Virus record (IMG/VR): IMGVR_UViG_3300021962_000022
DNA from: a virus
Lineage: Duplodnaviria > Caudoviricetes
Strand: one strand, 5' to 3'
Length of the DNA: 64,000 bases
Shown here piece by piece: positions 1-14,930 of this stretch. The translations under genes and the position numbers were made by a program. The notes under the pieces are model-generated. The model made no database searches, was not told the DNA's origin, and saw only the letters and a program-made list of their open reading frames with translations. How positions within the stretch are numbered: the stretch's first letter is position 1; each line of letters starts with the position of its first letter.

Positions 1-80
1 GAAACGTAATAAAATCAATGGTTTATGAACGCCAACCAATATCGGGAGCTGCGCATGAGCTGCGTTTGCGCTGCTCTTTC

Positions 81-215
81 TTACATCATATCATCTAAAA
101 ATCTATTTCGGTATTCTTCTTCATCTTTTTTTATTTCCTTATGTAATCTATACATGTAATAAAGAACAACGAATAAACCTTCAATCCATAATGTGTATAT
201 AATTCCTTCTATCAT
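81..215 (-). CDS. small membrane peptide (hypothetical)
   Basis: ORF from the internal ATG (MIEGIIYTLW...), one hydrophobic segment plus a charged tail. Confidence 0.35.
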   Translation of the reverse strand: MIEGIIYTLWIEGLFVVLYYMYRLHKEIKKDEEEYRNRFLDDMM

Positions 216-300
216 AGTAATAAGTATGTCTTGGATACGATGACCGTCGTCAGGTGGAAAATAGTTTGGCAACAAAGTTTGAAAAAAAGTAAAAAAAAAA

Positions 301-331
301 TTTGTTTATACAAAATATAGATTTATATTTG
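301..331 (+). promoter_or_regulatory. Bacteroidota-type promoter
   Basis: TTTG-N19-TATATTTG upstream of the 352 operon. Confidence 0.85.
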
Positions 332-351
332 TACCATAAAACATTCAAAAA

Positions 352-630
352 ATGAAAAAGAACAAAGTAACAACCAAGAAGAAACACACCTTACTAAAAG
401 GTGAAGGTATGAACCAACACACTCTCTATGGTGAGTTTGTGATTGACGAACCTCAAACAGATTTCGCAGATGTTGGGGTTAAAGAGGATAGTGTTTTAAG
501 ACACGAACAACCAGACGGAAGTTTCTCAAACGAACATAAACCACTCAAAGTTGAAAAGGGTGATTGGGTTATGGGGAAACAAGTTGAATACAATCCTTTT
601 GAAGGTCGTGTAACTCAAATTTGGGACTAA
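352..630 (+). CDS. conserved small beta-rich His-motif protein
   Basis: GEGxNxH...LxHE...EH...QVEYNP pattern; first gene after a promoter. Confidence 0.75.
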   Translation: MKKNKVTTKKKHTLLKGEGMNQHTLYGEFVIDEPQTDFADVGVKEDSVLRHEQPDGSFSNEHKPLKVEKGDWVMGKQVEYNPFEGRVTQIWD

Positions 631-632
631 CT

Positions 633-1037
633 ATGGCGAACCCACTAATTCACTCAAAGTCCAGCGTTAAGCGTTGGGGTGGTAAGGTAGAAGATTATCT
701 ACCTATCCACGAACTTATTGATAGTCCGAAGGCGACAATGAACAATAATAGTTCTCGTTTATTAACCCATAACACTTGGTTCGCCTACACTATCATTCCA
801 AAGATTTTTGGTTACAACATTGTTAATAGCGACGGAAAGTCAGTTGATGTCGTTGATATTGCGATGTTACATATCGCCGAAGATTTCAGAATGAAGTTTG
901 TTCCAACCCCACAAGATTACCTTAAACATTTAGAAGTTCAACCCTGGATGTGTAATGGGGTAAAGGACTTGGACAACCCCGAAGCGTACGAAGTAGTTAA
1001 ACAATTAAACCAAAAAATCCACGAATATGCAAACTAA
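633..1037 (+). CDS. DUF6915-like protein
   Basis: MANPLIHSKSSVKRWGG...EDYLPIH...HxxEDF motifs (family name recalled); ATG at 633 preferred. Confidence 0.7.
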   Translation: MANPLIHSKSSVKRWGGKVEDYLPIHELIDSPKATMNNNSSRLLTHNTWFAYTIIPKIFGYNIVNSDGKSVDVVDIAMLHIAEDFRMKFVPTPQDYLKHLEVQPWMCNGVKDLDNPEAYEVVKQLNQKIHEYAN

Positions 1038-1677
1038 CGAAGCAATCGCACTCTGGAAAGAGTTAGGTATTACAACCGCAAATATGGAGTTTTCCTGCGG
1101 TGGTGATAGTATGAATGATTACCACTTTTCATTCTACAATTCCGAAAACAAAGAAGTACAAAGTGGGGAACTTGAAAGTTTCTTTGATGATGATGTATTC
1201 AAAAGAGTTGAGTTCTATGTCAATTCTGATGGACACTACATTGGTGAGTCTGGTAATGTCAGTATTGAACTAAGCGAAGATGAGGAAAACCCCGATTTTG
1301 TGTATTACAAGAATGCACAAGCCGAATGGTCAGAGAGTTTTACTGATGAAGTTGCCGTTGAACTAACAGAGAAAGAAGTTGAGTTCGTCAGAAGTAAAGT
1401 CCTCAATTTGGTTGGCAGCCAAGATGGTAATGCGATTAACTATAAAGGTGATTGTATCTTAAACAATGAGGAAGAACAAATTTCTGACACTATATCACAA
1501 AAGATTAGTGATGTTGTAATGAACCACGAATTTGAAAACGCAGAGGGTGATGAAGAAGAGTGGTTTCAATATAACACAGATGAGGTTGATAGTGATGTAT
1601 TACCTAAAATTGTGGGTAACACACTATTCGTTTCCTTAACAAAACAATTTTTGGTTTATACTGATAGTGAACTATAA
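1027..1677 (+). CDS. acidic protein, DUF6878-like N-terminus
   Basis: FSCGGDS motif; very Glu/Asp rich; overlaps the upstream stop. Confidence 0.65.
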   Translation: MQTNEAIALWKELGITTANMEFSCGGDSMNDYHFSFYNSENKEVQSGELESFFDDDVFKRVEFYVNSDGHYIGESGNVSIELSEDEENPDFVYYKNAQAEWSESFTDEVAVELTEKEVEFVRSKVLNLVGSQDGNAINYKGDCILNNEEEQISDTISQKISDVVMNHEFENAEGDEEEWFQYNTDEVDSDVLPKIVGNTLFVSLTKQFLVYTDSEL

Positions 1678-1689
1678 AAAATTAAAGAG

Positions 1690-2379
1690 ATGAAAATAAT
1701 AATTGAAAACACTCGTTTTGACTACAACATTGGTTGTCGTTTATTGAAAACAAAATATCGTAATGTTCCTTTCAAAGGTTTGGAAGATATTTGGGAAGAT
1801 ATTGTTCCTATTACTTTCAAAGAAATTACAAAGGAACTTGAAAACATTGAACAACGAAGAATTGCGATAGGTTGTTTGGGTTTGGAAAACATTTACAAAG
1901 AAGTGAACCCAAAATTGGTAGGTTCAAAAACTATTTCAAAGGAAACCTTTTGGGTTGGTGAGAATAGTGAACTTATCAAAAACAACTTTGAGGACACCTA
2001 CGAACTTTATGAAGTAAAAGGAGATGTTTGGGGTGAAGGTTCAGACTTTGGTTGGCGGAAACCCGAAGATGTTTACTTTGTGAAGTGTAAGGACACATCA
2101 ACCGATAGAGAGTATTTTATTTGGGTGGACGCACAAAGTGTTTATCGTACTAACAACCCTAACCAATGGTTGTCAAGTAGTTCCAATTTCAGTAAAGAGA
2201 TTAACCCAATTCAAGCAATTGCGTGGACAATTCAAACAGACATCAAAGAAGGTGGTATTGAGAAAATTGTTCGTCAAGGTGATTGTGTTCTTATCAAAAA
2301 GAAAAAGAATAGTGAAAGAGGTTCGGTTAGACACTTAACTGAAAAAGAATACTTGAAGTTATTGGTCGCAGAAAGTTAA
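1690..2379 (+). CDS. DUF6745-related conserved protein
   Basis: EQRRIA...YELY...CKDTSTDREY...AIAWT...RQGD motifs (family name recalled). Confidence 0.65.
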   Translation: MKIIIENTRFDYNIGCRLLKTKYRNVPFKGLEDIWEDIVPITFKEITKELENIEQRRIAIGCLGLENIYKEVNPKLVGSKTISKETFWVGENSELIKNNFEDTYELYEVKGDVWGEGSDFGWRKPEDVYFVKCKDTSTDREYFIWVDAQSVYRTNNPNQWLSSSSNFSKEINPIQAIAWTIQTDIKEGGIEKIVRQGDCVLIKKKKNSERGSVRHLTEKEYLKLLVAES

Positions 2380-2400
2380 TTGGTTTGGTTTATTGGTTAG

Positions 2401-2428
2401 AACCCCCGCAGAAATGTGGGGGTTTTTT
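2401..2428 (+). terminator. intrinsic terminator, repeated family
   Basis: AACCCCCGCAGAAATGTGGGGGTTTTTT hairpin plus T-tract. Confidence 0.9.
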
Positions 2429-2467
2429 ATTGCTCACAACAGAAGACCAGTCAACAACACCAGGTCC

Positions 2468-2530
2468 TGATTTTGTTTGGCGTTCCGTAAAGTATTGATT
2501 TTATTAGGTTTCTATATGCCAAACAAATTT
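2468..2530. repeat. inverted motif pair with 36-bp spacer
   Basis: TTTGTTTGGC(2481)-N36-(2518)GCCAAACAAA with internal TAAAGTATTGATTTTATTAGG. Confidence 0.85.
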
Positions 2531-2640
2531 CCCTGGAGCGGCATCTGGGCGATTCCAGGTCTTTCTGCTAGTTTTACTGGTTTAACCAGCGCTGTTAGCT
2601 GGTCTTCTATAATTTGATTGGCGAAAAAGTATAAAAAAAT

Positions 2641-2671
2641 TTTGTTTATATTAGAATAGATACTATATTTG
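2641..2671 (+). promoter_or_regulatory. Bacteroidota-type promoter
   Basis: TTTG-N19-TATATTTG. Confidence 0.85.
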
Positions 2672-2696
2672 TATAAACCAATTAAAACAACACGTT

Positions 2697-3104
2697 ATGT
2701 ACGAATCAGTCAAAGAGTATTATCAGTTCTTAAATGAATTGAAAAAACAAAAGGAAGAGTTCCTTTTAAAAACAAAAGAAAGTGTTCTTCAACAAATGGA
2801 TGTTTTTATGTCCGAACATGGTTGGACACGAAAGAATGGGGGTAAAGATAGAAAATTTACTCAAAAAGTATTCTACACCAAAAAGTTCAATGGTAAAGAT
2901 ATCGTAATTGAGTATCGTTGTAACTACCAAGATGATTTTGTTGATGGTGGTTTACCCGAATTTTCACACGACAAGTCAATTCCCACTAGTATTGAAAAGT
3001 TGCAAATGGGTTACTTTCATTGGAACGACCACGATACAAGTGGTTGGAGTTTAGATGTGGTAATGGAACGGATGGAAGTCTTTTATGACAAGTACACCAA
3101 GTAA
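2697..3104 (+). CDS. hypothetical protein
   Basis: monocistronic ORF between a promoter and a terminator. Confidence 0.8.
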   Translation: MYESVKEYYQFLNELKKQKEEFLLKTKESVLQQMDVFMSEHGWTRKNGGKDRKFTQKVFYTKKFNGKDIVIEYRCNYQDDFVDGGLPEFSHDKSIPTSIEKLQMGYFHWNDHDTSGWSLDVVMERMEVFYDKYTK

Positions 3105-3108
3105 CTTG

Positions 3109-3138
3109 AAACCCTCACAGAAATGTGGGGGTTTTTTA
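3109..3138 (+). terminator. intrinsic terminator, repeated family
   Basis: AACCCTCACAGAAATGTGGGGGTTTTTT. Confidence 0.9.
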
Positions 3139-3204
3139 TTTACCACAGATGTTGGTGACCCCGGTTCAGGGTGGATTTAGGTTGGCAACAAAGTTTAAAA
3201 TAAA

Positions 3205-3236
3205 TTTGGATTATAAAAGTATTCGTATTATATTTG
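3205..3236 (+). promoter_or_regulatory. Bacteroidota-type promoter
   Basis: TTTG-N20-TATATTTG. Confidence 0.85.
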
Positions 3237-3256
3237 TATTATAAATCAACAAGGAC

Positions 3257-3475
3257 ATGATAAAATCAATTAATGAAAAACAGAGTGGGGTTGAGATTGA
3301 CCTCACAGGACCTGAAGGGAACGCGTTCGTTCTTATCGGGTACGCGGGTAAATGGGCGAAACAACTTGGATTGGACTCCAAAAAAATTCAGGAGGAGATG
3401 ATGAGTGGGGATTACGAGAATTTGATTGGCGTAATTGAAAAGTATTTCGGTGAATATGTAACTCTTTATCGTTAA
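3257..3475 (+). CDS. conserved phage hypothetical protein
   Basis: IDLTGPEGNAF...SGDYENL motif recalled from phage proteins. Confidence 0.8.
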   Translation: MIKSINEKQSGVEIDLTGPEGNAFVLIGYAGKWAKQLGLDSKKIQEEMMSGDYENLIGVIEKYFGEYVTLYR

Positions 3476-3479
3476 TCAT

Positions 3480-3683
3480 ATGGCGAAGAAAATTCAAATA
3501 TTGTCACCCGATGGGTTCACCCTTGAAAGGGATGTTCCCTACTACAAGTCGCACAGAGCTGCGGCGGAGGCATTCGCAAAATGGAAAAAAGGTTATGAAA
3601 CCCAAGGTTATTATTCTTCCGTAAAGTATGGACGAATTCACTTAAGTGACCTTGAAGATTATTGTCAACTTAATTATTTGTAA
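3480..3683 (+). CDS. hypothetical protein
   Basis: tightly packed ORF in operon. Confidence 0.75.
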   Translation: MAKKIQILSPDGFTLERDVPYYKSHRAAAEAFAKWKKGYETQGYYSSVKYGRIHLSDLEDYCQLNYL

Positions 3684-3688
3684 AAACC

Positions 3689-4009
3689 ATGAAAAACTAC
3701 AATCAACTCTGCGTATGGGAGGGAACTCTCGTAGGAAAAGACCAAGTAAAAGATTTCGAAAAATTCTTCAAAGAAGAAATGGGTACTCGAGTAAAGTACT
3801 TGGAAGAAATTGAAACACAACCAACACCTGGTGAACCTGATACAGGTGGACGTAACGATGTGTTCTTCTATGTACACAATGAGGACATTGATAAATTTGC
3901 AATACCTCGTTTGTCTATGGGTATTCGTTGGTGGGAGGATGTATTACGTAATGGTAATGGTGTTTTGTATACCGAAGATGTGTTGGAGAAATATCCGATG
4001 ACCTGGTAA
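3689..4009 (+). CDS. hypothetical protein
   Basis: tightly packed ORF in operon. Confidence 0.75.
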   Translation: MKNYNQLCVWEGTLVGKDQVKDFEKFFKEEMGTRVKYLEEIETQPTPGEPDTGGRNDVFFYVHNEDIDKFAIPRLSMGIRWWEDVLRNGNGVLYTEDVLEKYPMTW

Positions 4010-4038
4010 TCCCTCGAAATTGGTTGGCAAAAAACAAC

Positions 4039-4068
4039 TTGTAGAATAAAATAATAATTATACATTTG
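4039..4068 (+). promoter_or_regulatory. Bacteroidota-type promoter
   Basis: TTG-N19-TACATTTG. Confidence 0.75.
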
Positions 4069-4083
4069 TAAAAAACTAAACGT

Positions 4084-4335
4084 ATGACAAACCAAGAATT
4101 AACCACGTATTGGGTAAACCAATGTGAGAAAGTCCTAAAGGGACGTGTTATTAAATCAGTTCGTTATCTTACTGATGAGGAAATGGAACTTATGGGTTGG
4201 TACAAAAGACCTATTTGTTTTGAATTGGACAACGGAACACTTTGTATTCCTTCAATGGATGATGAGGGTAATGATGGTGGAAGTTTGTTCTATCAAGAAA
4301 AAGGTAAGGAACTTGATGTATTACCTGTAATCTAA
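4084..4335 (+). CDS. conserved phage hypothetical protein
   Basis: GRVIKSVRYLT...DDEGNDGGSLF motif. Confidence 0.8.
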   Translation: MTNQELTTYWVNQCEKVLKGRVIKSVRYLTDEEMELMGWYKRPICFELDNGTLCIPSMDDEGNDGGSLFYQEKGKELDVLPVI

Positions 4336-4378
4336 AAAACACTTGATAAGTTAAAAAAGAATGTGTAAGTTTTTGATA

Positions 4379-4448
4379 GATTACATTTCATAGTTGTAAT
4401 TTGTGTTTGGTTTGACACTTAAAGGGGTTCTACGGAATCCCTTTTTTT
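4379..4448 (+). ncRNA. candidate small RNA (about 70 nt)
   Basis: near-consensus promoter TTG(4343)-N20-TAAGTTT, no + strand ORF, own terminator at 4421-4448. Confidence 0.4.
4421..4448 (+). terminator. intrinsic terminator
   Basis: AAAGGGGTTC-TACG-GAATCCCTTTTTTT. Confidence 0.85.
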
Positions 4449-4536
4449 ATGTCTAAATCTTTAAAAATCAATCACTTATAATCCACCAGGCGGGACGACT
4501 GGACGATTTTGTTTGGCAAAAAACACTAGTATTTTA

Positions 4537-4660
4537 TTTGTATATTCTTAAAATCTTTATTATGTTTGTCATACATAAAGTCAAAGATGTATGTGGAAAA
4601 ACTTTTTTGAAAAAAACTTTAAAAAAAATTTGGAAAAAAAGAAAAACTATTATATCTTTG
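4537..4660 (+). promoter_or_regulatory. tandem Bacteroidota-type promoters of the ParB-like gene
   Basis: TTTG(4537)-N20-TATGTTTG and TTTG(4629)-N20-TATCTTTG. Confidence 0.8.
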
Positions 4661-4701
4661 TACCCGAAATTAAATCATTTAACTTTTAATTCAGAAACGA
4701 C

Positions 4702-5454
4702 ATGACAAAAAATGTTCAAGTAAAGTTCACCCAAAATTTGGGTATGTTCAAACTTCACAACGTAAATCGTGAGGTTGACACTCCACGCGTTAAGCGTATT
4801 ACCGACTCAATGAAGAAAGACGGATTAAAACTCGTCCCAATCATTGTTAACTCTAACTATGTTGTAGTTGACGGACAACACCGACTAACTGCAGCAAAAG
4901 AAGCGGGTAAAGGAATCTACTTTATTGTAGATGTTACTATCCCGAACACTACGAAAGGAATCTTTGAAGCCGCACGTAAGTTCAATCAGAACATGAAAGA
5001 GTGGGGTAAGAAAGATTACATTCACGGGTTCTCTGAACAAGGAAACAAATCCTACAAAACTTTGGAGGATTTTTCAAAAGAGTTCCCAATGTTCTCATTG
5101 ACTGAACGAATTATGTTACTTCAAAATTCGGGTACTCGTCATGTGGACAAACAAGATTTCGCCGATGGAAAGTTTATCGTGGGTGATATGGATAAGGCGA
5201 AAGAATGGGCGAACAACCTACTTCAACTCAAACCTTACTTTGAAAAGGGTTACAACAAATCAGTATTTGTTCGTACACTTCTTACCATTATGGAAAAGAA
5301 GACCGACTTCAAGTTTGAGGAGTTTCTTCACAAAGTAAAACTTCGTCCAAGTTCAATCTTTATGTGTGGTGATAAAAAATCATACGCGGAAATGATTGAG
5401 GACATTTACAACTATAAGCGTCGTACTGACGAAAAGTTGAATCTTCGTTTCTGA
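4702..5454 (+). CDS. ParB/Sulfiredoxin N-terminal domain protein
   Basis: PIIVN...VVDGQHRLTAA motif followed by a helical C-terminal region. Confidence 0.8.
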   Translation: MTKNVQVKFTQNLGMFKLHNVNREVDTPRVKRITDSMKKDGLKLVPIIVNSNYVVVDGQHRLTAAKEAGKGIYFIVDVTIPNTTKGIFEAARKFNQNMKEWGKKDYIHGFSEQGNKSYKTLEDFSKEFPMFSLTERIMLLQNSGTRHVDKQDFADGKFIVGDMDKAKEWANNLLQLKPYFEKGYNKSVFVRTLLTIMEKKTDFKFEEFLHKVKLRPSSIFMCGDKKSYAEMIEDIYNYKRRTDEKLNLRF

Positions 5455-5478
5455 CTTTAAGTTTTAGGGTTAGTAATT

Positions 5479-5508
5479 GGGGGTGACCGAAAGGTTATCC
5501 CCTTTTTT
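5479..5508 (+). terminator. intrinsic terminator
   Basis: GGGGGTGACC-GAAA-GGTTATCCCCTTTTTT. Confidence 0.9.
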
Positions 5509-5660
5509 ATGCGAAAAATTCACAAGATGTTCTCACCTGTCGACGGATTCTGGATGTTGTTTGGCGTAGTTTTCAACACACAAATGTTTGTAATCCAATA
5601 AAAAAGACACTTTTTGTTTAATGTTTGACTAAAAAAACCTGAACAAAATAAAAATATTTG

Positions 5661-5691
5661 TTGTTTTTAGAAAATATTCTTATTACCTTTG
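5661..5691 (+). promoter_or_regulatory. Bacteroidota-type promoter
   Basis: TTG-N20-TACCTTTG. Confidence 0.7.
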
Positions 5692-5714
5692 TACCATACT
5701 TCAAAAACTTGAAT

Positions 5715-6086
5715 ATGATAAAAAAACCAAGAAAGACTACGGCTAATTCTCTGAAGAAGTCTTTACACGAAATTCGTGAATGCCTTAATGAGAGTTTACC
5801 AAACTTTGAGAAGAAAGAAATGGTGGGAATTAAGTTCTCAAGAGTTGGTACTCGTTATCACATCGAAAATGCACCAGTTCCTCCTACCGATAAGATTGGT
5901 GTACAGCTTGAACGTTCTTTCAATGATTTTATGCGTAAGCTGAAAGTAAACTATGGTGGAATGAAGCTGGAAGGTTCAATGGTTATGGGAACTAAAGCTG
6001 ACATGTTTTTGGTTGGCTACAATAACTTTGAGCGTAAAGGTAAAAACCTCACCAAAAAGGGACATTCAATAGAAGGAGTTCTGTAA
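5715..6086 (+). CDS. basic hypothetical protein
   Basis: ATG at 5715 lies downstream of the promoter; the longer TTG start overlaps it. Confidence 0.75.
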   Translation: MIKKPRKTTANSLKKSLHEIRECLNESLPNFEKKEMVGIKFSRVGTRYHIENAPVPPTDKIGVQLERSFNDFMRKLKVNYGGMKLEGSMVMGTKADMFLVGYNNFERKGKNLTKKGHSIEGVL

Positions 6087-6116
6087 TTAGTATATTGATT
6101 TAATGTTCGGTTCAAG

Positions 6117-6147
6117 AAGCCCTCGCAGAAATGTGGGGGTTTTTTTA
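6117..6147 (+). terminator. intrinsic terminator, repeated family
   Basis: AAGCCCTCGCAGAAATGTGGGGGTTTTTTT. Confidence 0.85.
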
Positions 6148-6209
6148 TGCCTGAAGATTTCGAGTCACGGTTCAGGACGGATTTAGGTTGGCAACAAAGT
6201 AGAAAAAAG

Positions 6210-6241
6210 TTTGGTAAAAAGAAATAATTATTATATTTTTG
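6210..6241 (+). promoter_or_regulatory. Bacteroidota-type promoter
   Basis: TTTG-N20-TATTTTTG; about 60 bp nearly identical to the 9562 promoter region. Confidence 0.8.
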
Positions 6242-6265
6242 TATATGAATTTAAAAATGAAAGAC

Positions 6266-6700
6266 ATGAAAACAATATTTGCAAGTTTGTTGTTCACTTT
6301 AGTAACAACCACGTCAATGGCTCAAATGATGAAACCTGAGTATGATTGGAATAACTTTGATGAGAAATCTTATCAACTCCACAAAAAGGAATTGAATCAG
6401 TATTATGATTCTAAAAAAGAGGAAGTAATCAAAGAATATAGTTCTGGTTGGAGAACTATTGATTATACTGAATCTAAAAAAGTAGATTTGGAAATAATTG
6501 AAGTTGACAGAAAAGCGGATTTGGATGAATTGGAATTATATTACAAATTAGAAAACGAATCATCTTTCGAAAAAATGATTAGAAGTATTAAAGTATTTCG
6601 AAATTCAGTAACATTCAAATATGGTGTTCTACCGATTTCAATAGGATTTTTGTTAGGTATTCTACTCGTGGTTTTTCGAAAGACGACAAGTAAAATATAA
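6266..6700 (+). CDS. exported protein with C-terminal membrane anchor
   Basis: signal-peptide-like MKTIFASLLFTLVTTTSMAQ; C-terminal hydrophobic helix. Confidence 0.7.
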   Translation: MKTIFASLLFTLVTTTSMAQMMKPEYDWNNFDEKSYQLHKKELNQYYDSKKEEVIKEYSSGWRTIDYTESKKVDLEIIEVDRKADLDELELYYKLENESSFEKMIRSIKVFRNSVTFKYGVLPISIGFLLGILLVVFRKTTSKI

Positions 6701-6704
6701 TCAT

Positions 6705-6733
6705 AACCCTCACAGAAATGTGGGGGTTTTTTT
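6705..6733 (+). terminator. intrinsic terminator, repeated family
   Basis: AACCCTCACAGAAATGTGGGGGTTTTTTT. Confidence 0.9.
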
Positions 6734-6834
6734 ATGTCTGAAATTTTCAGGATACTGTTCAGGATGGATTTAGTTTGGCGTGGGCCAACCAATATCCAGA
6801 ATCCGTCGACAGGTGAAAAAAAAATAAAAATAAA

Positions 6835-6866
6835 TTTGGAATATAAAAATATTCGTTTTATATTTG
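6835..6866 (+). promoter_or_regulatory. Bacteroidota-type promoter
   Basis: TTTG-N20-TATATTTG. Confidence 0.85.
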
Positions 6867-6887
6867 TATTGTTAAACCAATACTATT

Positions 6888-7658
6888 ATGAAATATAGAA
6901 ACAAGACCCAAGCAAAAAGAGAAACGGGAATCAATTATTTAGGTTCTGTTAACATGACTACTAAACACGCTAAGGCGTATAAGTATGATGAATTAACCTA
7001 CAGTCTTTACCTCGCACCCGCAAAGTTGAGTGGTTATGAGGTTTGTCCTACGAGGAATAAAGAGTGTACCGCACTATGTTTAAACGAATCTGGTATGAAT
7101 CGTATGAACATGAATAATGACATGATTACTGAAAGTAGGATTAAAAAGACAAAATTGTTTTTTGAACAACGTCAGTATTTTATGGAATGGATGGTTGAAG
7201 AAATTATCACCGCAAAAAATAAGGCGGAAAAATTAGGTTTTCACTTCAGTGTTCGTTTAAATAACACTTCAGACATTACACCCGAATCCTTTCATATGGA
7301 TGTAAACGGCGAAAGAAAAAACATTTTACAATTGTTTCCCGATGTTACTTTTTATGATTACACCAAAGTACCGAAGAGAGTTGAACTTGTTAAAAAGTAT
7401 ACCAACTATGATTTGACATTTTCATTTAGTGGAGACAACTTCACCGATTGTGTAAACATGTTGAATGGTGGAGTAAGAGTTGCGGTTGTTTTCAAAAAAG
7501 AATTACCAAAAACATTTTGGGGTAGAAAGGTTATCGATGGTGACTTATATGATATGAGATATCGAGATGAGAAAGATGTTATTGTGGGGTTAAAGTATAA
7601 AGTCACACGAAAACGACCCGATAAAAATAGCAAGTTTGTAGTAGACCCCTCACAATGA
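6888..7658 (+). CDS. Gp88-like protein with Cys cluster
   Basis: LYLAP...VCP-x5-C-x3-CL...RLNNTSDI...FYDYTK...IDGD..D.R motifs (family name recalled). Confidence 0.6.
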   Translation: MKYRNKTQAKRETGINYLGSVNMTTKHAKAYKYDELTYSLYLAPAKLSGYEVCPTRNKECTALCLNESGMNRMNMNNDMITESRIKKTKLFFEQRQYFMEWMVEEIITAKNKAEKLGFHFSVRLNNTSDITPESFHMDVNGERKNILQLFPDVTFYDYTKVPKRVELVKKYTNYDLTFSFSGDNFTDCVNMLNGGVRVAVVFKKELPKTFWGRKVIDGDLYDMRYRDEKDVIVGLKYKVTRKRPDKNSKFVVDPSQ

Positions 7659-7669
7659 GGGGTTTTTTT
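7645..7669 (+). terminator. intrinsic terminator overlapping the stop codon
   Basis: ACCCCTCA-CAA-TGAGGGGT plus T-tract. Confidence 0.85.
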
Positions 7670-7711
7670 ATGCTTAAGCGCAGCTGTGCTGCTGGTTGCG
7701 CGCTGGCCCCT

Positions 7712-7773
7712 AATTTAGTTTGGCGTGAGTAAAGTGTTGATTTTATTAGGGTTGTGTAACGCCAAACAAAATC
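7712..7773. repeat. inverted motif pair with 36-bp spacer
   Basis: TTAGTTTGGC(7724)-N36-(7761)GCCAAACAAA with internal TAAAGTGTTGATTTTATTAGG. Confidence 0.85.
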
Positions 7774-7894
7774 GACCTGGAAGCTGCGCTGTTGCAGCTG
7801 GTGAGCAGCTGGTGAAAAACTAGCTATTTGCTCTGGTTACTGTCGTTCAGGGCTGGGATGGTAAAAATAGTTTGGCAACAAAGTTTAAAAAATA

Positions 7895-7926
7895 TTTGGA
7901 ATATAAAATTATTCATATTATATTTG
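7895..7926 (+). promoter_or_regulatory. Bacteroidota-type promoter
   Basis: TTTG-N20-TATATTTG. Confidence 0.85.
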
Positions 7927-7945
7927 TATCCTAAATCAATTAAAA

Positions 7946-8548
7946 ATGGGACAGTATTTTAAACCAATTATTCTCGGTGAAAAACCGAAAGACGGTGAAA
8001 ACGAAACCGTAAAGGCGTGGATGTATTCACATTCATATGACAATGGTCTCAAACTAATGGAACATTCCTATCAAGGAAACAACTTTGTTTCAACGTTTGA
8101 AAAAGAATTAACCCGAAGAGGGTCACATTACAAAAGTCGTGTAGTGTGGGGTGGTGATTACGCCGATGAAGAACCGGGGGTAAAAGTTATTAGTGAAGGG
8201 AAAGAGTACGACGCAAATTTGTATTCACTTTGTAATGATGAAAACGAAATCAAACCAAAGGTTGCAAAAACGGATGACTACCCTTTTATTGTAAATCACA
8301 CTAAAAAACAATTCGTAGATAAAAACAAAGTACCCGAAATTCAAGATTGGGAAGGTGTAAAAATTCACCCTTTACCACTTTTAACTAGTGAGGGTAACGG
8401 ACAAGGTGGTGGTGATTTTAGGGGAGAAGATGAAAATGAAATTATTGGTTCGTGGGCGAGGGATGTTATCTCAATAGAAAAGGAAAGTCCGTTAGTCATG
8501 ATTGGTACAACGGATTATACCGAATTAATTTTTGATTTGAAAGAGTAA
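7946..8548 (+). CDS. conserved phage hypothetical protein
   Basis: MGQYF...GLKLMEHSY...IHPLPLLT.EGNG.GGGDF motifs. Confidence 0.85.
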   Translation: MGQYFKPIILGEKPKDGENETVKAWMYSHSYDNGLKLMEHSYQGNNFVSTFEKELTRRGSHYKSRVVWGGDYADEEPGVKVISEGKEYDANLYSLCNDENEIKPKVAKTDDYPFIVNHTKKQFVDKNKVPEIQDWEGVKIHPLPLLTSEGNGQGGGDFRGEDENEIIGSWARDVISIEKESPLVMIGTTDYTELIFDLKE

Positions 8549-8551
8549 AAA

Positions 8552-8578
8552 AATTCCCCCGTGACAGGGGGATTTTTG
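8552..8578 (+). terminator. intrinsic terminator fused to the TTGGC motif
   Basis: AATTCCCCC-GTGACA-GGGGGATTTTT running directly into GTTTGGC. Confidence 0.75.
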
Positions 8579-8602
8579 TTTGGCAACAAAGTGTAAAATA
8601 AA

Positions 8603-8634
8603 TTTGGAATATAAAGATATTTGTTTTATATTTG
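8603..8634 (+). promoter_or_regulatory. Bacteroidota-type promoter
   Basis: TTTG-N20-TATATTTG. Confidence 0.85.
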
Positions 8635-8660
8635 TATCATAAACCAATTAAATAATCGAT

Positions 8661-9059
8661 ATGTCAAAAAGTATTAAAGTTCGTTTTAACCTCGGCAAGG
8701 GTAAAAACTACATGAAGTGGAAGGTAACACATCCTGATGGTGATGTTATCTACTATAGTCCTGATGAAGTACAAATGGTAATGACCGAGTGTACATTTAA
8801 AAACCACAAGAGTACCGCACAGAAAATTTTCGATGGTGCACACAAAACAGTTTGTGCGTGGATACTATGTAAGGACATTAAGATTTACACAGGTAAACCA
8901 ATCACGGATGAAAGTAGAAGGGTTCGTTATAATCCACGTGTCCAACCTAACTGGATATTCGATGGTCATATCATGGATAATGATGGGGTACCGAAATTAC
9001 ACACAATTGAAAGTGGCGTTTATATCACAGAAGGAAAAGGTGAAAATTGTTTGGCATAA
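8661..9059 (+). CDS. conserved phage hypothetical protein
   Basis: KVRFNLGKGKNYMKWKV...HKTVCAW motifs; follows a promoter. Confidence 0.8.
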   Translation: MSKSIKVRFNLGKGKNYMKWKVTHPDGDVIYYSPDEVQMVMTECTFKNHKSTAQKIFDGAHKTVCAWILCKDIKIYTGKPITDESRRVRYNPRVQPNWIFDGHIMDNDGVPKLHTIESGVYITEGKGENCLA

Positions 9060-9070
9060 AATAAAACAAC

Positions 9071-9553
9071 ATGGAACTCATCAAAGCACAACAACTCGCA
9101 GAGAAACTAATCCACAGACACGACCTTGATGTTAAAGGATGGAGATTTTCATTTGATAACGCAAGACGTAGGTTCGGATGTTGTAAGTACAGAAGTAAAC
9201 AAATTACTTTATCCAAAGTATTGACTTTACTAAACAATGAGAAAGAAGTAAAGAATACTATTCTACATGAAATTGCACACGCATTAACACCAGGTCATCA
9301 CCATGATTGGGTGTGGAGACAGAAAGCAATTGAAATAGGATGTAATGGAAGTCGTTGTTACAGTTCTAAAATAGTTGCAACCCCTGAACCAAGATATGTT
9401 GCGACCTGTGTGGGATGTGGTAAACAACATAGTAAGAACCGTTTGAGTAAATGGTCGTCATCATCATGTCGTCCGTGTTCGGGTGGCCGTTACAACGAGA
9501 AGTTCAAACTTGAGTTCAGGATAAATCCGAAATTTAGTTTGGCAACAAAGTAG
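9071..9553 (+). CDS. SprT-like zinc metalloprotease
   Basis: RRFGCC...ILHEIAHA...HHDWVW motif and a C-terminal CxxC..CxxC. Confidence 0.85.
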   Translation: MELIKAQQLAEKLIHRHDLDVKGWRFSFDNARRRFGCCKYRSKQITLSKVLTLLNNEKEVKNTILHEIAHALTPGHHHDWVWRQKAIEIGCNGSRCYSSKIVATPEPRYVATCVGCGKQHSKNRLSKWSSSSCRPCSGGRYNEKFKLEFRINPKFSLATK

Positions 9554-9561
9554 AAAAAAAG

Positions 9562-9593
9562 TTTGGTAAAAAGAAATAATCATTATATCTTTG
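9562..9593 (+). promoter_or_regulatory. Bacteroidota-type promoter
   Basis: TTTG-N20-TATCTTTG. Confidence 0.85.
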
Positions 9594-9615
9594 TATTACA
9601 ATTAAACCAATAGAC

Positions 9616-9927
9616 ATGAAAAAAGTAAAAGAACTTTATCGAAGTAAACTACATGGTCGAGATAAATCTCATGATGTGGTAATCATCCAAGACACTACAA
9701 GAGTAAGTGGATGTAAATTAAAAATGACCTACGAATGTTACAACGCGGTTGAACGATTTACAGGTGAACGACTTGTGGGTGGTAAGTGGGAGTTTAACTT
9801 CTCAATGGAAGATTTAGGGGTAACCCCTGATAGGAGTAACTACGTATGTGACAGTAGTAAACGTTTGGAAAGAACGGAGAACTTAATTCAAAAAGGTATC
9901 GAATTTTTTAACATTTTAAATCAATAA
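9616..9927 (+). CDS. hypothetical protein
   Basis: ORF after a promoter. Confidence 0.8.
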   Translation: MKKVKELYRSKLHGRDKSHDVVIIQDTTRVSGCKLKMTYECYNAVERFTGERLVGGKWEFNFSMEDLGVTPDRSNYVCDSSKRLERTENLIQKGIEFFNILNQ

Positions 9928-9931
9928 AATC

Positions 9932-10480
9932 ATGGGACTAGACATGTATCTCAGCAAGAAGACCTACGTTAAGAACTGGGACTTCCAAGACAAATCACAA
10001 CAGCACAAGGTGACTGTTAAAAAGGGTAGTAAGGTTCGCACCGACATCAAACCTGAACGTGTGTCATACATCACAGAGAGTGTGGCGTATTGGAGAAAAT
10101 CAAATCACATTCACCAATGGTTCGTAACGAATTGTCAAGGTGGTGAAGACCAATGTCAGGAGTCATATGTGGACAGAGGTCAACTTCAGGAGTTGGTCAA
10201 TATCTGTAAACAAGTGAAAGAGAGTTTGGAGAAATCAGGTAAGAAGACCGTGAAGATGGAAGTTGGTTGGCAGAACGGAGAAAAGATGTATGACGATGTT
10301 GAGGTGTTTGAGGATACCGAACTCGCAGAAGAATTACTTCCAACTCAACCCGGTTTCTTCTTCGGTGGAACGGAGTACGACCAATGGTATGTTCATGGTT
10401 TAGATGAAACCATCAATCAAATTGAACCACTTCTACAAGAAGAAGGGGATGGTGACTTCTACTATCAGTCATCCTGGTAA
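9932..10480 (+). CDS. conserved phage hypothetical protein
   Basis: MGLDMYL...YWRKSNHIH.WF...LLPT..GFFFG...YQSSW motifs. Confidence 0.85.
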   Translation: MGLDMYLSKKTYVKNWDFQDKSQQHKVTVKKGSKVRTDIKPERVSYITESVAYWRKSNHIHQWFVTNCQGGEDQCQESYVDRGQLQELVNICKQVKESLEKSGKKTVKMEVGWQNGEKMYDDVEVFEDTELAEELLPTQPGFFFGGTEYDQWYVHGLDETINQIEPLLQEEGDGDFYYQSSW

Positions 10481-10501
10481 AAAAAAATAACTGGGATATT
10501 A

Positions 10502-10533
10502 TTTGGTAAAATGATATCCCAGTTTTACCTTTG
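10502..10533 (+). promoter_or_regulatory. promoter straddled by an 11-bp inverted repeat
   Basis: TTTG-N20-TACCTTTG; AACTGGGATAT(10489)-N14-ATATCCCAGTT(10524). Confidence 0.75.
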
Positions 10534-10561
10534 TATAATGAAAGCTTAAAAAATTAGAGAT

Positions 10562-11173
10562 ATGCCAAACTGGTGTTCAAATAAAATAGAGATAACAGGT
10601 ACTAAAGAGCAAATAGCTCTACTTACCAAAGTTCTTGAGGATGTACCAAAATCCAAACCCCAAGAGTGTATCGTTTTTGAGTCCTTAATCGGTCGTGAGC
10701 CCGATATGTCAAAAGATGAATACGAACAAGGTGGATGGTACCAATCAAACATCGGTTGGTTTGGCACCAAGTGGGATGTATCCTACGACGATTGCAACTT
10801 TAACTTTGAGGATGAGTGTATTACAATGTATCCCGACACGGCGTGGTCACCACCAATAGGATTTGGTGCTAGGTTGCACGAGATGTATGGTGTGGATGTT
10901 GAGTTATATTACGAAGAACCTGGTTGTGATTTCTGCGGTAAAACTATTATTAAAAATAGAACCATAACAGAAAATGACTATGGTTATATGGAAGGTATCT
11001 ATCACTTCAATGATGAATACTTTTGGGAAGGATTATTGGACAATGAAATAGAGTACGCAAATGATGAGGGTATGAGTGTAGATGAGTTTGCGGAGAAGTT
11101 TAATTTCGTATCCGAAGATGACCTAAAAGAAATTAAAAAGATTTACGAAGAAAAATTAATTGAAAATAAATAA
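10562..11173 (+). CDS. YubB/DUF1281-like ferredoxin-fold protein
   Basis: MPNWCSN...WFGTKWD...TAWSPP...YEEPGCDFCG motifs. Confidence 0.75.
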   Translation: MPNWCSNKIEITGTKEQIALLTKVLEDVPKSKPQECIVFESLIGREPDMSKDEYEQGGWYQSNIGWFGTKWDVSYDDCNFNFEDECITMYPDTAWSPPIGFGARLHEMYGVDVELYYEEPGCDFCGKTIIKNRTITENDYGYMEGIYHFNDEYFWEGLLDNEIEYANDEGMSVDEFAEKFNFVSEDDLKEIKKIYEEKLIENK

Positions 11174-11175
11174 CG

Positions 11176-11436
11176 ATGGATAACTTAAAAGTAATGTCGA
11201 CAGCAGAACCTCAGGTACAATTAACCTATCAAGAATGGGTTGACGAATTGAGGATAAAAGAAAATGTAATTGTTTCATCCAAATACCACTCAAGAACAAT
11301 TGAGCAGCGTATACGGGTGGATGAAGCAATTCAACTAAAAAGAGAAATGGAAACCTCTGAAGAAAAAGTTTCCGACGGGACAGCTGAACCTCGGATTTTG
11401 TTTGGCATGTTAAGAACAGTAATAAACCTATTTTAA
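11176..11436 (+). CDS. hypothetical protein
   Basis: ORF in operon; contains a coding copy of the TTGGC motif. Confidence 0.6.
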   Translation: MDNLKVMSTAEPQVQLTYQEWVDELRIKENVIVSSKYHSRTIEQRIRVDEAIQLKREMETSEEKVSDGTAEPRILFGMLRTVINLF

Positions 11437-11439
11437 ATT

Positions 11440-11925
11440 ATGGGACGAGTAAATAAAACAATCGAAGGTGTCTTCATCGACATCGTAGGGTCCTCAAGTG
11501 AACTTAGTTCATATGACCAATTCATTAACCATGGAGGTGGTAAGAAATATTCCAAGGAGTTGGAAGAACTTACAGCCCTGTATAAGAAGGAGGTTACTAA
11601 GAGTAAAGTGATGTTCGAAAAACTTGCATCACTCGAGGAGATTATAATCCAAATGAGGATTCGTGAGGACCTTAGTGATATCAAGTTGACCCAAGTCCGT
11701 GAGTACATCTACGCAAGGACTCCATTCTACCGTAAGGATAAGAAGTCAAAAGATGTCCGTGTCATTGTCGACAAAATTGAATTCCATCCTGAGTCGGACG
11801 GTAACCTCGAGATTTTGCTTGGCAACAAGGACTTCATGGAGAAAGCAAAAAACAAGTTGGCCCAAGCAATGGACCTTGAGATTTTAGAGAATATCAAAAC
11901 ATTCAATTCATCATTTAAAAAGTAG
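11440..11925 (+). CDS. hypothetical coiled-coil protein
   Basis: ORF in operon; contains a coding copy of the TTGGC motif. Confidence 0.8.
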   Translation: MGRVNKTIEGVFIDIVGSSSELSSYDQFINHGGGKKYSKELEELTALYKKEVTKSKVMFEKLASLEEIIIQMRIREDLSDIKLTQVREYIYARTPFYRKDKKSKDVRVIVDKIEFHPESDGNLEILLGNKDFMEKAKNKLAQAMDLEILENIKTFNSSFKK

Positions 11926-11929
11926 AGTC

Positions 11930-12232
11930 ATGAAAAGAACAGAAGACATCAAAACAAACATTGGTTTATCAATCTTCAAAGGAGATTGGGACGGTGCAAC
12001 TTGGACCATCACTGGTTTCCCTAAAAAGGATGTGATTAGTCACGACTTTGATTCAGCATATGATTTCGAGGATTGTATTAAACGAAATGTTAATTGCAAC
12101 GGAATCGATTTCGACAGTGAGTATTGTCAGTTCTTTGCATACGCAAAAACCAAAGCACGTTTAGTGTCTTTTGCAAAACAGATTGAAAAACATTTCGAGA
12201 AAGCAAAGAAGGTGATGGAGGAGATGTACTGA
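11930..12232 (+). CDS. hypothetical protein
   Basis: ORF in operon; FDSEYCQF motif. Confidence 0.8.
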   Translation: MKRTEDIKTNIGLSIFKGDWDGATWTITGFPKKDVISHDFDSAYDFEDCIKRNVNCNGIDFDSEYCQFFAYAKTKARLVSFAKQIEKHFEKAKKVMEEMY

Positions 12233-12262
12233 TTTTGTCTGGCGAAAAATATCACAAAAAAA

Positions 12263-12294
12263 TTTGGAATATTCTAGAATTAGTATTAAGTTTG
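12263..12294 (+). promoter_or_regulatory. Bacteroidota-type promoter
   Basis: TTTG-N20-TAAGTTTG. Confidence 0.8.
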
Positions 12295-12313
12295 AATCAA
12301 GAACCAAAATATT

Positions 12314-12631
12314 ATGTCATATAAACAACAAGTACAGGATTTACAGAATGATATTATAAACAATATCAAACGATTCGTAGGTGAACTCGGTCAAGATGAA
12401 TTACATTTTAACGAGATGTTTAGAGTTTGGGTAACTATATCAACTTGGGACGATGATTATGTTCGTGTGTCATACGCGGCGGTCGGGTTACGGGGTGAGT
12501 TTGTTATCTGTACCAGTGAGGTTGAGGAAGAAGAAATTCAATTAGGGGAACTCGACATATATGAGTTGTCATACATTTTAGATTTACTAATATCAAATCA
12601 ATTTAAAACCGATAACAATGGACAAGATTAA
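12314..12631 (+). CDS. acidic hypothetical protein
   Basis: ORF after a promoter. Confidence 0.75.
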   Translation: MSYKQQVQDLQNDIINNIKRFVGELGQDELHFNEMFRVWVTISTWDDDYVRVSYAAVGLRGEFVICTSEVEEEEIQLGELDIYELSYILDLLISNQFKTDNNGQD

Positions 12632-13217
12632 ATTAAACAGTAAGGTCGTCGTATCCGACCCTTGTTACACAATCCCAACCTGGTGTCAAGCTGTAGTTGA
12701 CAAAGTAAAACCCGGTATGTATGACACCCACCTGAAGAAACACGACGCAGGTGATTGGGGTAAGAGATGTTCAATGTTACTTGTCATACACGAGGACCAT
12801 AAAGATGATATCCTAAGATGGGAGGAACATTCCGCAACCATCGGGGTCGATTCAGGTCAGTGTGGTATCTTCTCAAAAGAAACTTACCGTAACGATTCAA
12901 TCACCGAGAAAATTGGTTTGGGTGATGGGGACATTTCATTCTTTGGTGTTTCACCTTGGAAAGAAATGACTGATGGTCGTAAAGAGGAAGAAGGAGAAAT
13001 ATGGTATGTTAGTATGTGTTCTCGAACCTTAGGTGAAAAATCTTGGGGTGTGTATGACAGTGGAGTCGTATCCTCATCAGGTTTTGGTGACGGTTCATAC
13101 AGTTTATATGTCGCAAAGAAAAGAGGAAAGATTGTGGCAATGTGTGTGGACTTTCAAGTTGAAGAAGAAGGTGTAATCGATTTTGATTTTTTTCGCGATA
13201 TCCAACTAGAGAAGTAA
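12618..13217 (+). CDS. DUF4241-like protein
   Basis: VVSDPCY...GVDSGQCGIF...SSGFGDGSY motifs. Confidence 0.7.
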   Translation: MDKIKLNSKVVVSDPCYTIPTWCQAVVDKVKPGMYDTHLKKHDAGDWGKRCSMLLVIHEDHKDDILRWEEHSATIGVDSGQCGIFSKETYRNDSITEKIGLGDGDISFFGVSPWKEMTDGRKEEEGEIWYVSMCSRTLGEKSWGVYDSGVVSSSGFGDGSYSLYVAKKRGKIVAMCVDFQVEEEGVIDFDFFRDIQLEK

Positions 13218-13240
13218 TAAATTTTATTTAGATTTGAATC

Positions 13241-13522
13241 ATGAAAAAATTACTATTGATATTGCCAATTTTATTTGTGGTTGGGTGCAGAAGTACCTCA
13301 ACATACATCAAACACTCGGATGTAGCAATCGTATCGGGTGACATCCTTTATATATGCAATAAGGGACACGGTCCGATGATTTATAATTATTGGAAGAATG
13401 ATGTTTACTGTGACTCAACAATTAAGAGTGTTTATTTGTTGGACAGTATCCCATTTAATGCATTGTCCAAGAAATCCATACCATGTGGATGTAATCAAAG
13501 AGGGTATGCTAAATTAAAATAA
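13241..13522 (+). CDS. putative lipoprotein
   Basis: lipobox-like LFVVGC after a hydrophobic signal. Confidence 0.7.
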   Translation: MKKLLLILPILFVVGCRSTSTYIKHSDVAIVSGDILYICNKGHGPMIYNYWKNDVYCDSTIKSVYLLDSIPFNALSKKSIPCGCNQRGYAKLK

Positions 13523-13989
13523 TGACTATGTTCAATAAACAACACGCATCAAAACCGAATCATATCTTGAGTCCATCTCAGTGGATGAATTTTGGTTGGC
13601 TAACCATGGTACCTGTATCATATTTCGTCCACCCATATGCATGTGCACTGGCTGTGGTCATATACATCTACAAATATTTCGAAGTAGACTGTTGGAGGTA
13701 TGAATTCTATGATGACTGTGTTGTTGAACGTAAAGGAGTCTTCAGTGTGACTCGTGAATCGGTTCAGTACTTCAGGATTAAATCTGTAATGGTGGATGAA
13801 CCATTCTGGATGAGACTCCTCGGGTTATCAATTGTAAGAGTGATGACCTCAGAACAATTTAAACATGAATTAATATTTCAGGCCGTAGAAGAGGGTGAAG
13901 GAATTCAGGCATACTTACAACACAACGCAAGAGCAGAAAGATTGAATATGGGAATCAGGGATTTCGATGTATACAATACGCATCTGTAA
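13522..13989 (+). CDS. membrane protein with bacterial PH (bPH_2) domain
   Basis: two TM segments then YEF...ERKGVF...RIKSV....PFWMRLLGL. Confidence 0.75.
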   Translation: MTMFNKQHASKPNHILSPSQWMNFGWLTMVPVSYFVHPYACALAVVIYIYKYFEVDCWRYEFYDDCVVERKGVFSVTRESVQYFRIKSVMVDEPFWMRLLGLSIVRVMTSEQFKHELIFQAVEEGEGIQAYLQHNARAERLNMGIRDFDVYNTHL

Positions 13990-13993
13990 CGTT

Positions 13994-14314
13994 ATGAAAC
14001 TGTTCATCAGAGATAAGGTATACTTTACGGACCCTACTACAGGAGAGTTCTTTGAAGACACTATAACACATGTCGACGAACAGGTTATAATGGGAAGAGA
14101 CCGTGACTTGACATCGTTACACGAGAGAGGAGATTTAAATATCTATCGGATGCAATGTTACGTATGTGGATGTATAATCCCGAAACCATTATCACAGTTT
14201 CAGGTGGACGGTTTAAAGGGTAAACAACAATTGTTACCATCCACATGTAACGTCTGTCTAAGTGACCCGAGATATTATGAGGACCCTGAGGAGGGAATCA
14301 TACTGTTCATTTAG
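13994..14314 (+). CDS. hypothetical protein with C-terminal zinc finger
   Basis: CYVC...CNVC; ATG at 13994. Confidence 0.7.
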   Translation: MKLFIRDKVYFTDPTTGEFFEDTITHVDEQVIMGRDRDLTSLHERGDLNIYRMQCYVCGCIIPKPLSQFQVDGLKGKQQLLPSTCNVCLSDPRYYEDPEEGIILFI

Positions 14315-14460
14315 TTTGGCTAAGTCCGACGACAGGTGATACCGGAATTCCCGATTTAGTTTGGCCGAATCAGAATCGGTCGACGGGACCTGAGATGGTG
14401 GATTTAGTTTGGCGGGGGTTCAGATGACAGGTGACCCTGGAATCCCCGATTTAGTTTGGC
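14309..14460 (+). repeat. tandem array of four ATTTAGTTTGGC cores
   Basis: exact 12-mers at 14309, 14354, 14402 and 14449 (periods 45, 48, 47) with related GC-rich spacers. Confidence 0.9.
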
Positions 14461-14516
14461 ACAAGTTCTTTAAAATATTTTATACAGGATTTGGTTTTTA
14501 GGATTTTCTTGTTTAT

Positions 14517-14524
14517 TATTTATA
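14517..14524 (+). promoter_or_regulatory. putative late promoter TATTTATA
   Basis: 17 nt upstream of ATG 14542; the motif recurs before about 10 genes. Confidence 0.55.
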
Positions 14525-14541
14525 TACAAAATTATTATATT

Positions 14542-14814: not shown

Positions 14815-14837
14815 TTTTACAAAAAATCTCTTAACTG

Positions 14838-14870: not shown

Positions 14871-14930
14871 GTCCTGAAAGTTTTGTTTAAAAAAACAATG
14901 ACCGACGAATTTAGGTTGGCATTTTTTAGG

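Follow-up and report, generated by a model that had tools for sequence, protein, structure and literature searches.

Paired inverted arms around an IHF-type core in the early block of a large phage: candidate bend or loop elements whose core has flipped between lineages

The window analysed here is a 64,000-nucleotide stretch of IMG/VR virus record IMGVR_UViG_3300021962_000022 (Duplodnaviria; Caudoviricetes) and is part of a large phage genome. At positions 1–14,900 lies an early block of small genes on the + strand; a separate promoter and a strong intrinsic terminator belong to each of them. The promoters are of the Bacteroidota type (TTTG-N17-21-TAnnTTTG), and the repeat families of the window, D1–D7, are the early promoter and terminator modules. 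This study concerns a set of paired sites in the early block, in which two short inverted arms face each other across a spacer that, at three sites of the window, contains an asymmetric core resembling a binding site for the DNA-bending protein IHF. The relatives of the phage in IMG/VR are jumbo phages, the best of which (G004) is 288 kb long and 92% complete according to CheckV, and 20 public runs, belonging to 12 studies of drinking, fresh and estuarine water, contain the lineage of the window itself. Megablast of positions 1–9000 against 50,697 phage records gave no match, Rfam returned two sub-threshold chance matches in positions 1–12000, neither at the paired sites, and no tRNA or tmRNA gene was found in the window.

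The arm logo, built from 43 paired sites of eight lineages, is RAWWTTGKTTGGC, a 13-nt non-palindromic word. Two complete sites with long spacers are present in the window. Site 1 (2469–2530) consists of a left arm at 2469–2481 (GATTTTGTTTGGC), a 36-nt spacer at 2482–2517 and a right arm at 2518–2530; site 2 (7712–7773) has its left arm at 7712–7724, a 36-nt spacer at 7725–7760 and its right arm at 7761–7773. The TTGGC and GCCAA words of the facing arms (2477–2522 and 7720–7765) have exactly 36 nt between them. Both spacers contain the 21-nt core TAAAGTRTTGATTTTATTAGG on the + strand, at 2488–2508 and 7730–7750, and a further copy with three mismatches lies on the − strand at 5–25; three copies in 64 kb compare with 0.01 expected, and this number was reached in none of 100 shuffles. 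These data confirm what a model working from the letters alone (the sequence-only reading) had described at sites 1 and 2, facing motifs 36 bp apart around a shared core, and they bear out its claim that the window start carries the same core and one arm in the opposite orientation. This site 0 (1–43, − strand) comprises 30 nt of spacer (1–30) and the right arm GCCAACCAATATC (31–43). Site 0 is cut by the window and not by the end of the genome, as a source-run contig has 56 nt more sequence before window base 1; in relatives A and B, where the orthologous sites are complete, the spacers measure 38 nt.

All three cores match the IHF consensus WATCAANNNNTTR (PMC8942017) exactly, a consensus that is proteobacterial and may not be that of the host. 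The matching 13-mer is located at 13–25 on the + strand in site 0 (AATCAATGGTTTA) and, in the opposite orientation, on the − strand at 2488–2500 in site 1 and 7730–7742 in site 2. The lone reversed core that the sequence-only reading placed at about 4463–4479 does exist, as a consensus match on the + strand at 4466–4478 (AATCAATCACTTA), but we do not count it as a part of the system: it is not conserved in relative A, and as the consensus matches 18 times in this A+T-rich window, it is probably there by chance.

A third pair, at 6767–6796, is closed, its arms being separated by only 4 nt (TTGGC-GTGG-GCCAA at 6775–6788), and its orthologues in the relatives have spacers of 4, 9 or 23 nt. The right arm of the closed site together with its flank (6784–6819) recurs in inverted orientation, at 92% identity, as an extended solo forward arm at 5530–5565 (+). 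The inverted pair had thus been correctly seen, although as a 33-bp segment, whereas the repeat is 36 nt long; the extended identity occurs in this lineage only and is missing from relative A. The flanks of the open sites are rich in G+C. On the left of site 1, the segment that separates it from the preceding gene's terminator (2429–2468) has a G+C content of 0.44, compared to 0.36 in the early block, and to its right a segment with CTGG and CCWGG words (2531–2612, 0.47) leads to a solo arm (TTGGC at 2618) and a promoter at 2641–2671. Site 2 is bordered by 7669–7711 (0.62), whose composition but not sequence is kept among the relatives, and by 7774–7866 (0.54), after which come a solo arm (TTGGC at 7872) and a promoter at 7895–7926. 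When the orthologous intergenic region is compared among six lineages, only the arms, the promoter and the terminator appear as conserved blocks, and the flanks keep composition alone. As a separate observation, the word GCTGGTG, which resembles E. coli Chi, is found twice in the right flank of site 2 within 7797–7815 (at 7797 and 7808, 11 bp apart), too few copies to interpret; GCTGGTG or CTGGT words return in the flanks of the relatives at roughly 10–11-bp steps. The only candidate for a − strand gene in the early block, a 44-aa open reading frame at 81–215 that is hydrophobic and then charged, sits between site 0 and the first promoter and has neither a Pfam match nor a clear promoter.

The arm is a polar motif of the early block. 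Searched for as TTNGNTTGGC, it occurs 22 times on the + strand of positions 1–14,911 and twice on the − strand, the latter copies being the right arms of sites 1 and 2, and the remaining 49 kb of the window contain no copy. The 288-kb relative has 42 of its 43 arm matches within one 24.5-kb stretch, with 33 on the gene strand. Solo arms precede the −33 box of early promoters by 22–24 bp, and some are found inside genes. At the end of the early block, a direct array of four arms with 45–48-bp spacing (14300–14465, +) stands upstream of the gene at 14545–14814, and relative A has an array of three. A 72-bp unit with a reversed arm is present in three tandem copies near the upstream edge of the early block of G004 (C1:234115–234268, locus L146), as a counterpart of the forward fourfold array at the downstream edge. 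In a more distant lineage (about 70% identity in the neighbouring gene), the same block is marked by a different word, CCCAGTAATG. As the arm motif differs between lineages, its reader is probably phage-encoded and co-evolving with it, and not a conserved host factor.

The gene just downstream of the fourfold array (14545–14814) encodes a small basic protein of 89 aa, rich in Lys, Ala and Pro, which was considered as a candidate binder of the arm. It has no match in Pfam, and Foldseek found none at E ≤ 0.001; only close relatives of the protein were found. A single-sequence AlphaFold model predicts a β–β–β–α arrangement in the C-terminal 42 residues (46–87), for which the best VIA-align Z score was 4.7, and the AP2 domain (6sy0, Z 4.4) was tied with many unrelated folds; these searches speak neither for nor against an AP2-like fold. 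Beyond this gene, at 14905–15000, three GTATGACA boxes come after the last arm copy, in the convergent gap at the end of the + strand genes. One or two copies of the same box fill many of the spacers in the relatives (in the 13–15- and 35–37-nt classes), and the box also lies beside the different arm of a distant lineage (L116).

A first pattern scan of IMG/VR was unspecific: chance accounts for most of the 103 loci it gave, and the coordinate match of one of them (L035) was coincidental. In G004, 13 paired sites span no more than about 17 kb of the early block, and there are over 30 solo arms. Across the 43 sites of the eight lineages, the spacer is 35–38 nt long in 19, and the others measure 4, 9–10, 13–15, 23–27, 45–47 or 75–77 nt. 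The 36-bp spacer, called invariant in the sequence-only reading, is therefore so within the window but not across lineages. The spacing is nonetheless conserved in homologous elements, even where the sequence between the arms is unrelated: the 35–38-nt spacers include at least six unrelated sequences, among them the IHF-type core and a direct repeat of GTATGACA/GTATTACAC boxes. A Rayleigh scan of the spacer lengths gave a peak near 10.5 bp (R 0.65, p ~1e-8 for all sites; R 0.62, p ~1e-4 for the 24 sequence clusters left after de-replication, where the peak is broad because the 36-nt class dominates), with the lengths clustering at ~4+10.5n bp. At one orthologous position, relatives A and B, which are 96% identical nearby, have the same arms around unrelated spacers of 36 and 27 nt. 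In addition, sites within one genome are as similar to each other as to their orthologues, and both observations fit an exchange of spacers through the arms.

Thirteen IHF-type spacers were collected via their arms alone and then oriented alike. ATCAA and TT are invariant among them, the four N positions of the consensus vary, and an A/T-rich tract lies just upstream. In 12 of the 13, the consensus starts at spacer position 18 or 19, whichever direction the core takes relative to the genes.

The direction of the core has changed in the course of evolution. At site 2, the window and lineages B and C read TTGATTTTATT relative to the flanking genes, and lineage A and L113/L114 have the reverse complement; at site 1, the core of the window and C is opposite to that of A and B, and at site 0, the window, A and B share one orientation. 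The tree of the neighbouring gene, a small one, requires the core to have flipped twice or more at site 2 and at least once at site 1. Relatives A and B, with 96% identity in the neighbouring gene, are opposite at site 2. The inversion takes in the whole spacer, and the slight difference between left and right arms stays in place. Within lineages the orientation is constant, in 10 of 10 contigs of A and 3 of 3 of B, which come from different metagenomes, and it is the same in two 99%-identical strains of the window's lineage. This result is based on contigs (from three runs, plus 13 IMG/VR contigs), which hide minor variants; the run examined as raw reads (X22) yielded only 19 reads and is uninformative on heterogeneity within the sample. 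Two scans of metagenomes with lineage-specific flanks added no contig and one contig, respectively, the latter being the known G004. A unitig break at 2458–2487 in run X17 was considered as a sign of heterogeneity and not counted, as nearby single-nucleotide polymorphisms suffice to explain it. Around site 2, the intergenic DNA of A and B is far more diverged than the genes. Taken with the likeness of sites within a genome, this divergence fits both an in-place inversion and a conversion by another site aligned in reverse, and either may have been the route.

The sites are not where the gene content of the block changes. Lineage A (L022) lacks a cassette at 6257–6700 (window 6146–6704), and so do two 99%-identical strains (runs X4 and X17), in which the depth is 0 at 6301–6600 and other sequence is carried instead. 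Comparison of cassette order with the relatives, where rearrangement breakpoints might have been expected at the paired sites, showed that gains and losses break at the flanking terminator and promoter modules. The absence of 6257–6700 looks like a cassette exchange of the kind known from the promoter-early stem-loop (PeSL) cassettes of T4-type phages.

The explanation we prefer, although we give it slightly less than an even chance, is that the paired sites are double-stranded, protein-bound bend or loop elements whose core flips passively by recombination through the arms. IHF bends ~35 bp by nearly 180°, bringing the flanking DNA together (PMC5829579, PMC8942017), and the 36-bp spacer is the length that one such IHF/HU-type wrap would occupy. 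The two inverted 13-bp arms would be half-sites for a factor, probably phage-encoded, that bracket this ~36-bp U-turn with the IHF-type consensus at a fixed offset; the bend would set the arms and their bound proteins side by side in a compact nucleoprotein knot, which would follow directly on a terminator and precede the next early promoter. We infer that the likely role of such a knot is architectural: it may separate early cassettes as an insulator, a roadblock or a topological barrier, or else serve as a nucleation point for a protein that is also bound to the solo arms, 23 bp before the early promoters. With symmetric arms, it would be irrelevant which way the asymmetric core points, and the core could thus flip over evolutionary time, through arm–arm recombination or template switching or through conversion from a reverse-aligned site, by the general recombination system of the phage; a RecA/UvsX-like frame was weakly detected in the relatives. 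The loop-anchor idea of the sequence-only reading fits this explanation, given the IHF-type core, the ~10.5-bp phasing of the spacers and the lack of compensatory pairing between the arms.

Several results weigh against the bend or loop explanation. The IHF consensus was defined for Proteobacteria, and its support in Bacteroidota is only indirect, in that E. coli IHF can replace a Bacteroides host factor in vitro (PMC2034462). The protein that binds the arms is postulated. A gene of the HU/IHF family (PF00216) was not found in the window or in the 92%-complete relative, whereas a Bacteroides control genome has the family. Some of the additional IHF-type examples were retrieved with a pattern that had the consensus built in and hence are not independent. 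The 36-nt class dominates the phasing signal, periods of 12–13 fit the de-replicated set almost equally well, and four sites with 9–10-nt spacers are out of phase. Finally, arms in the sense orientation are found inside coding sequences (1407, 2047, 3421, 6008, 10756, 11397, 11814 and 13591), several of them conserved in relative A; the 8–9 arm matches in coding sequence compare with 0.16 expected over the whole 13-kb early block, which may mean that the word also has a function other than at promoters and architectural sites, perhaps in RNA.

Inverted arms around an asymmetric core that is found in both orientations at the same sites also agree with a programmed switch or shufflon, in which the 36-bp core would be turned by a recombinase, in the course of an infection or from one generation to the next. 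The two orientations, however, are seen, at consensus level, between lineages only: 10 independent assemblies of A and 3 of B, as well as the two 99%-identical strains, agree within each lineage. The sequence-only reading saw no recombinase in the window, and none was found among the window's open reading frames of ≥150 aa, where neither PF00589 nor PF00239 was detected; extending the search for tyrosine and serine recombinases to four relatives (75–92% complete) gave no match to either family. Y1 transposases were likewise not found in these window frames or in the relatives, the only PF01797 match being a sub-threshold one of 15 bits. The spacers are non-coding, no TTTG-N17-21-TAnnTTTG promoter lies in them or reads out of them, so that the segment has no −33/−7 promoter to turn, and 36 bp is, to our knowledge, far below the size of known invertible segments. 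We therefore regard a programmed switch as very improbable, and the flips as most likely the product of passive recombination rather than of a genetic switch. The proposal that these are inversion or shuffling sites holds true for their evolution but, on the present evidence, not for a recombinase-driven mechanism. Minute inversions could also arise if the arms paired in RNA or single-stranded DNA, as in REP elements, with the 36-nt spacer as the loop; such a hairpin might shield the 3′ ends of upstream mRNAs, reinforce the terminator or act as a replication or recombination signal, and would flip as hairpins in chloroplast DNA do. The arms can make a 9–12-bp stem, the element lies just downstream of genes as REPs do (PMC3333891), and hairpin-associated inversions of 4–50 bp are well documented in plastomes (PMC12371153). 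Yet the complementarity of left and right arms is no greater within a site than between sites (7.28 versus 7.17 of 14, permutation p 0.28), so there is no compensatory co-variation, and the arms conserve sequence and not pairing. The DNA fold z-scores are modest (−1.4 to −2.6), the sites stand behind terminators that are already strong, Rfam finds nothing at them, and a hairpin offers no rationale for a 10.5-nt periodicity of loop length or for the persistence of both orientations, as each flip turns an RNA loop into its complement. We consider a hairpin function unlikely.

It is also unlikely, in our judgement, that the sites are functionless, either as debris of recombination between promoter modules of the PeSL kind or as selfish MITE-like inserts into palindromic targets, with arms carried along without a role and spacers that drift, flip and are replaced. 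The early block is indeed a mosaic of interchangeable terminator, arm and promoter modules, as the cassette missing in kin shows, and one orthologous site can have a spacer of 4, 9 or 23 nt while another has had its spacer replaced between 96%-identical phages. The arms are nevertheless among the best conserved intergenic bases, at orthologous positions in lineages 76–84% identical, the spacing is strongly non-random, and the offset of the core is fixed. Inverted ends are present as in a MITE, but sites 1 and 2 have no target-site duplication, and no transposase or autonomous partner was found; a search for the arm-pair pattern in 185,579 species genomes gave 27 matches against ~11 expected by chance (a rough estimate), all of them unrelated hairpins without the core. 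A replication or partition landmark would treat the arms as iterons for an initiator or a ParB-like protein and the IHF-type site as the usual accessory of an origin, as in pSC101, R6K gamma and P1 oriR. Repeated arms, including the fourfold array at 14300–14465 and the threefold one in relative A, the IHF-type site adjoining such repeats and a weak ParB/GmrSD_N-like match in the early protein at 4702–5454 agree with this idea. That match is below the Pfam cut-off, however, the paired sites have G+C-rich flanks and no AT-rich unwinding element, and thirteen paired sites with over 30 solo arms across 24 kb of a relative, some of them inside genes, do not make a discrete origin; we judge this role quite improbable. 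Sigma-54 promoters, an FNR box (wrong spacing), a DnaA box, parS/KorB operators and attC were dropped on inspection by eye. Integron attC sites have the core sites RYYYAAC ... GTTRRRY and are used by an integron integrase. The order here, GTTTGGC ... GCCAAAC, is the reverse, GTTTGGC does not fit GTTRRRY, and no tyrosine recombinase was found.

A more far-reaching version of the bend or loop explanation, which we regard as doubtful, is that a phage DNA-binding protein reads a lineage-specific 13-mer, and that facing 13-mers form U-turn clamps which would split the early block into insulated units of transcription or supercoiling. The inserts, whether of the IHF type, the GTATTAC-box type or others, would then be modules that can be swapped from one clamp to another and face either way. 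If so, the sites would be a phage counterpart of the BIMEs of E. coli with a reader protein of their own, which has not been described so far. More generally, if the sites are architectural, giant phages of this kind build such elements between their early cassettes from a phage-specific word and a host-type bending site. They would then offer a handle on the insulation or shut-off of dozens of strong early promoters, on the sequence preference of IHF-like proteins in Bacteroidota, and on recombinase-free flips and module exchange driven by short inverted repeats. They also give reason for caution, as inverted arms around an asymmetric core in two orientations are not proof of a site-specific recombination switch.

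Outside the early block, several − strand genes were noted in passing. A thymidylate synthase of 432 aa is encoded at 54116–55414; the 266-position Pfam model is matched over residues 8–334, leaving roughly 100 extra internal residues and a C-terminal extension. The frame at 51490–52029 has a weak similarity, below the Pfam cut-off, to Acb1 and 2′–5′ RNA ligases, and that at 59287–60147 encodes a clear N6/N4 DNA methylase.

Among known systems, the PeSL cassettes of T4-type phages, which combine a promoter and a terminator (Arbiol et al. 2010, PMC2839356), resemble the surroundings of the sites: small early genes are bracketed by a terminator stem–loop and a strong host-type promoter, and these modules are the breakpoints of cassettes. 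The paired-arm element with its IHF-type core differs as an extra module between terminator and promoter, at which none of the observed cassette changes breaks. The arrangement within the element recalls the IHF-assisted U-turns of the lambda attP H′ site, sigma-54 promoters and transposon ends, as the IHF-type site is likewise centred between two putative protein sites, which a ~180° bend over ~35 bp would juxtapose (PMC5829579, PMC8942017). In those systems a recombinase, an enhancer-binding protein or a transposase is involved, whereas none is associated with the sites here, whose flanking words are symmetric and phage-specific. For the flips, a parallel is found in the small hairpin-associated inversions of plastid non-coding DNA (Kelchner and Wendel 1996, as cited in PMC12371153), where likewise 4–50 bp between short inverted repeats are found in either orientation in relatives, recurrently and with no dedicated recombinase. 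The plastid loops are, in that account, held to be neutral, whereas the phage spacers keep a conserved motif at a fixed offset between arms under selection. The closest described system, judging by its layout, appears to be BIME-1/RIB (RIP) of E. coli, in which a REP and an inverted REP surround a conserved long linker L that frequently contains an IHF site (PMC3333891). REPs are hairpins of 20–40 nt with a 5′ GTAG, compared to non-palindromic 13-bp words in the phage, and no RAYT/TnpA-REP was found here; the phage copies all lie within one 24-kb early block and not across a chromosome, the arm also occurs inside genes and, at a constant distance, before promoters, and IHF binding is predicted. 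What the two systems share is the overall design: a repeated extragenic unit is present in two inverted copies, and the conserved linker between them is a few dozen bp long and carries an IHF consensus. Both elements are placed at the 3′ ends of transcription units, and the linker length varies in other members of the family.

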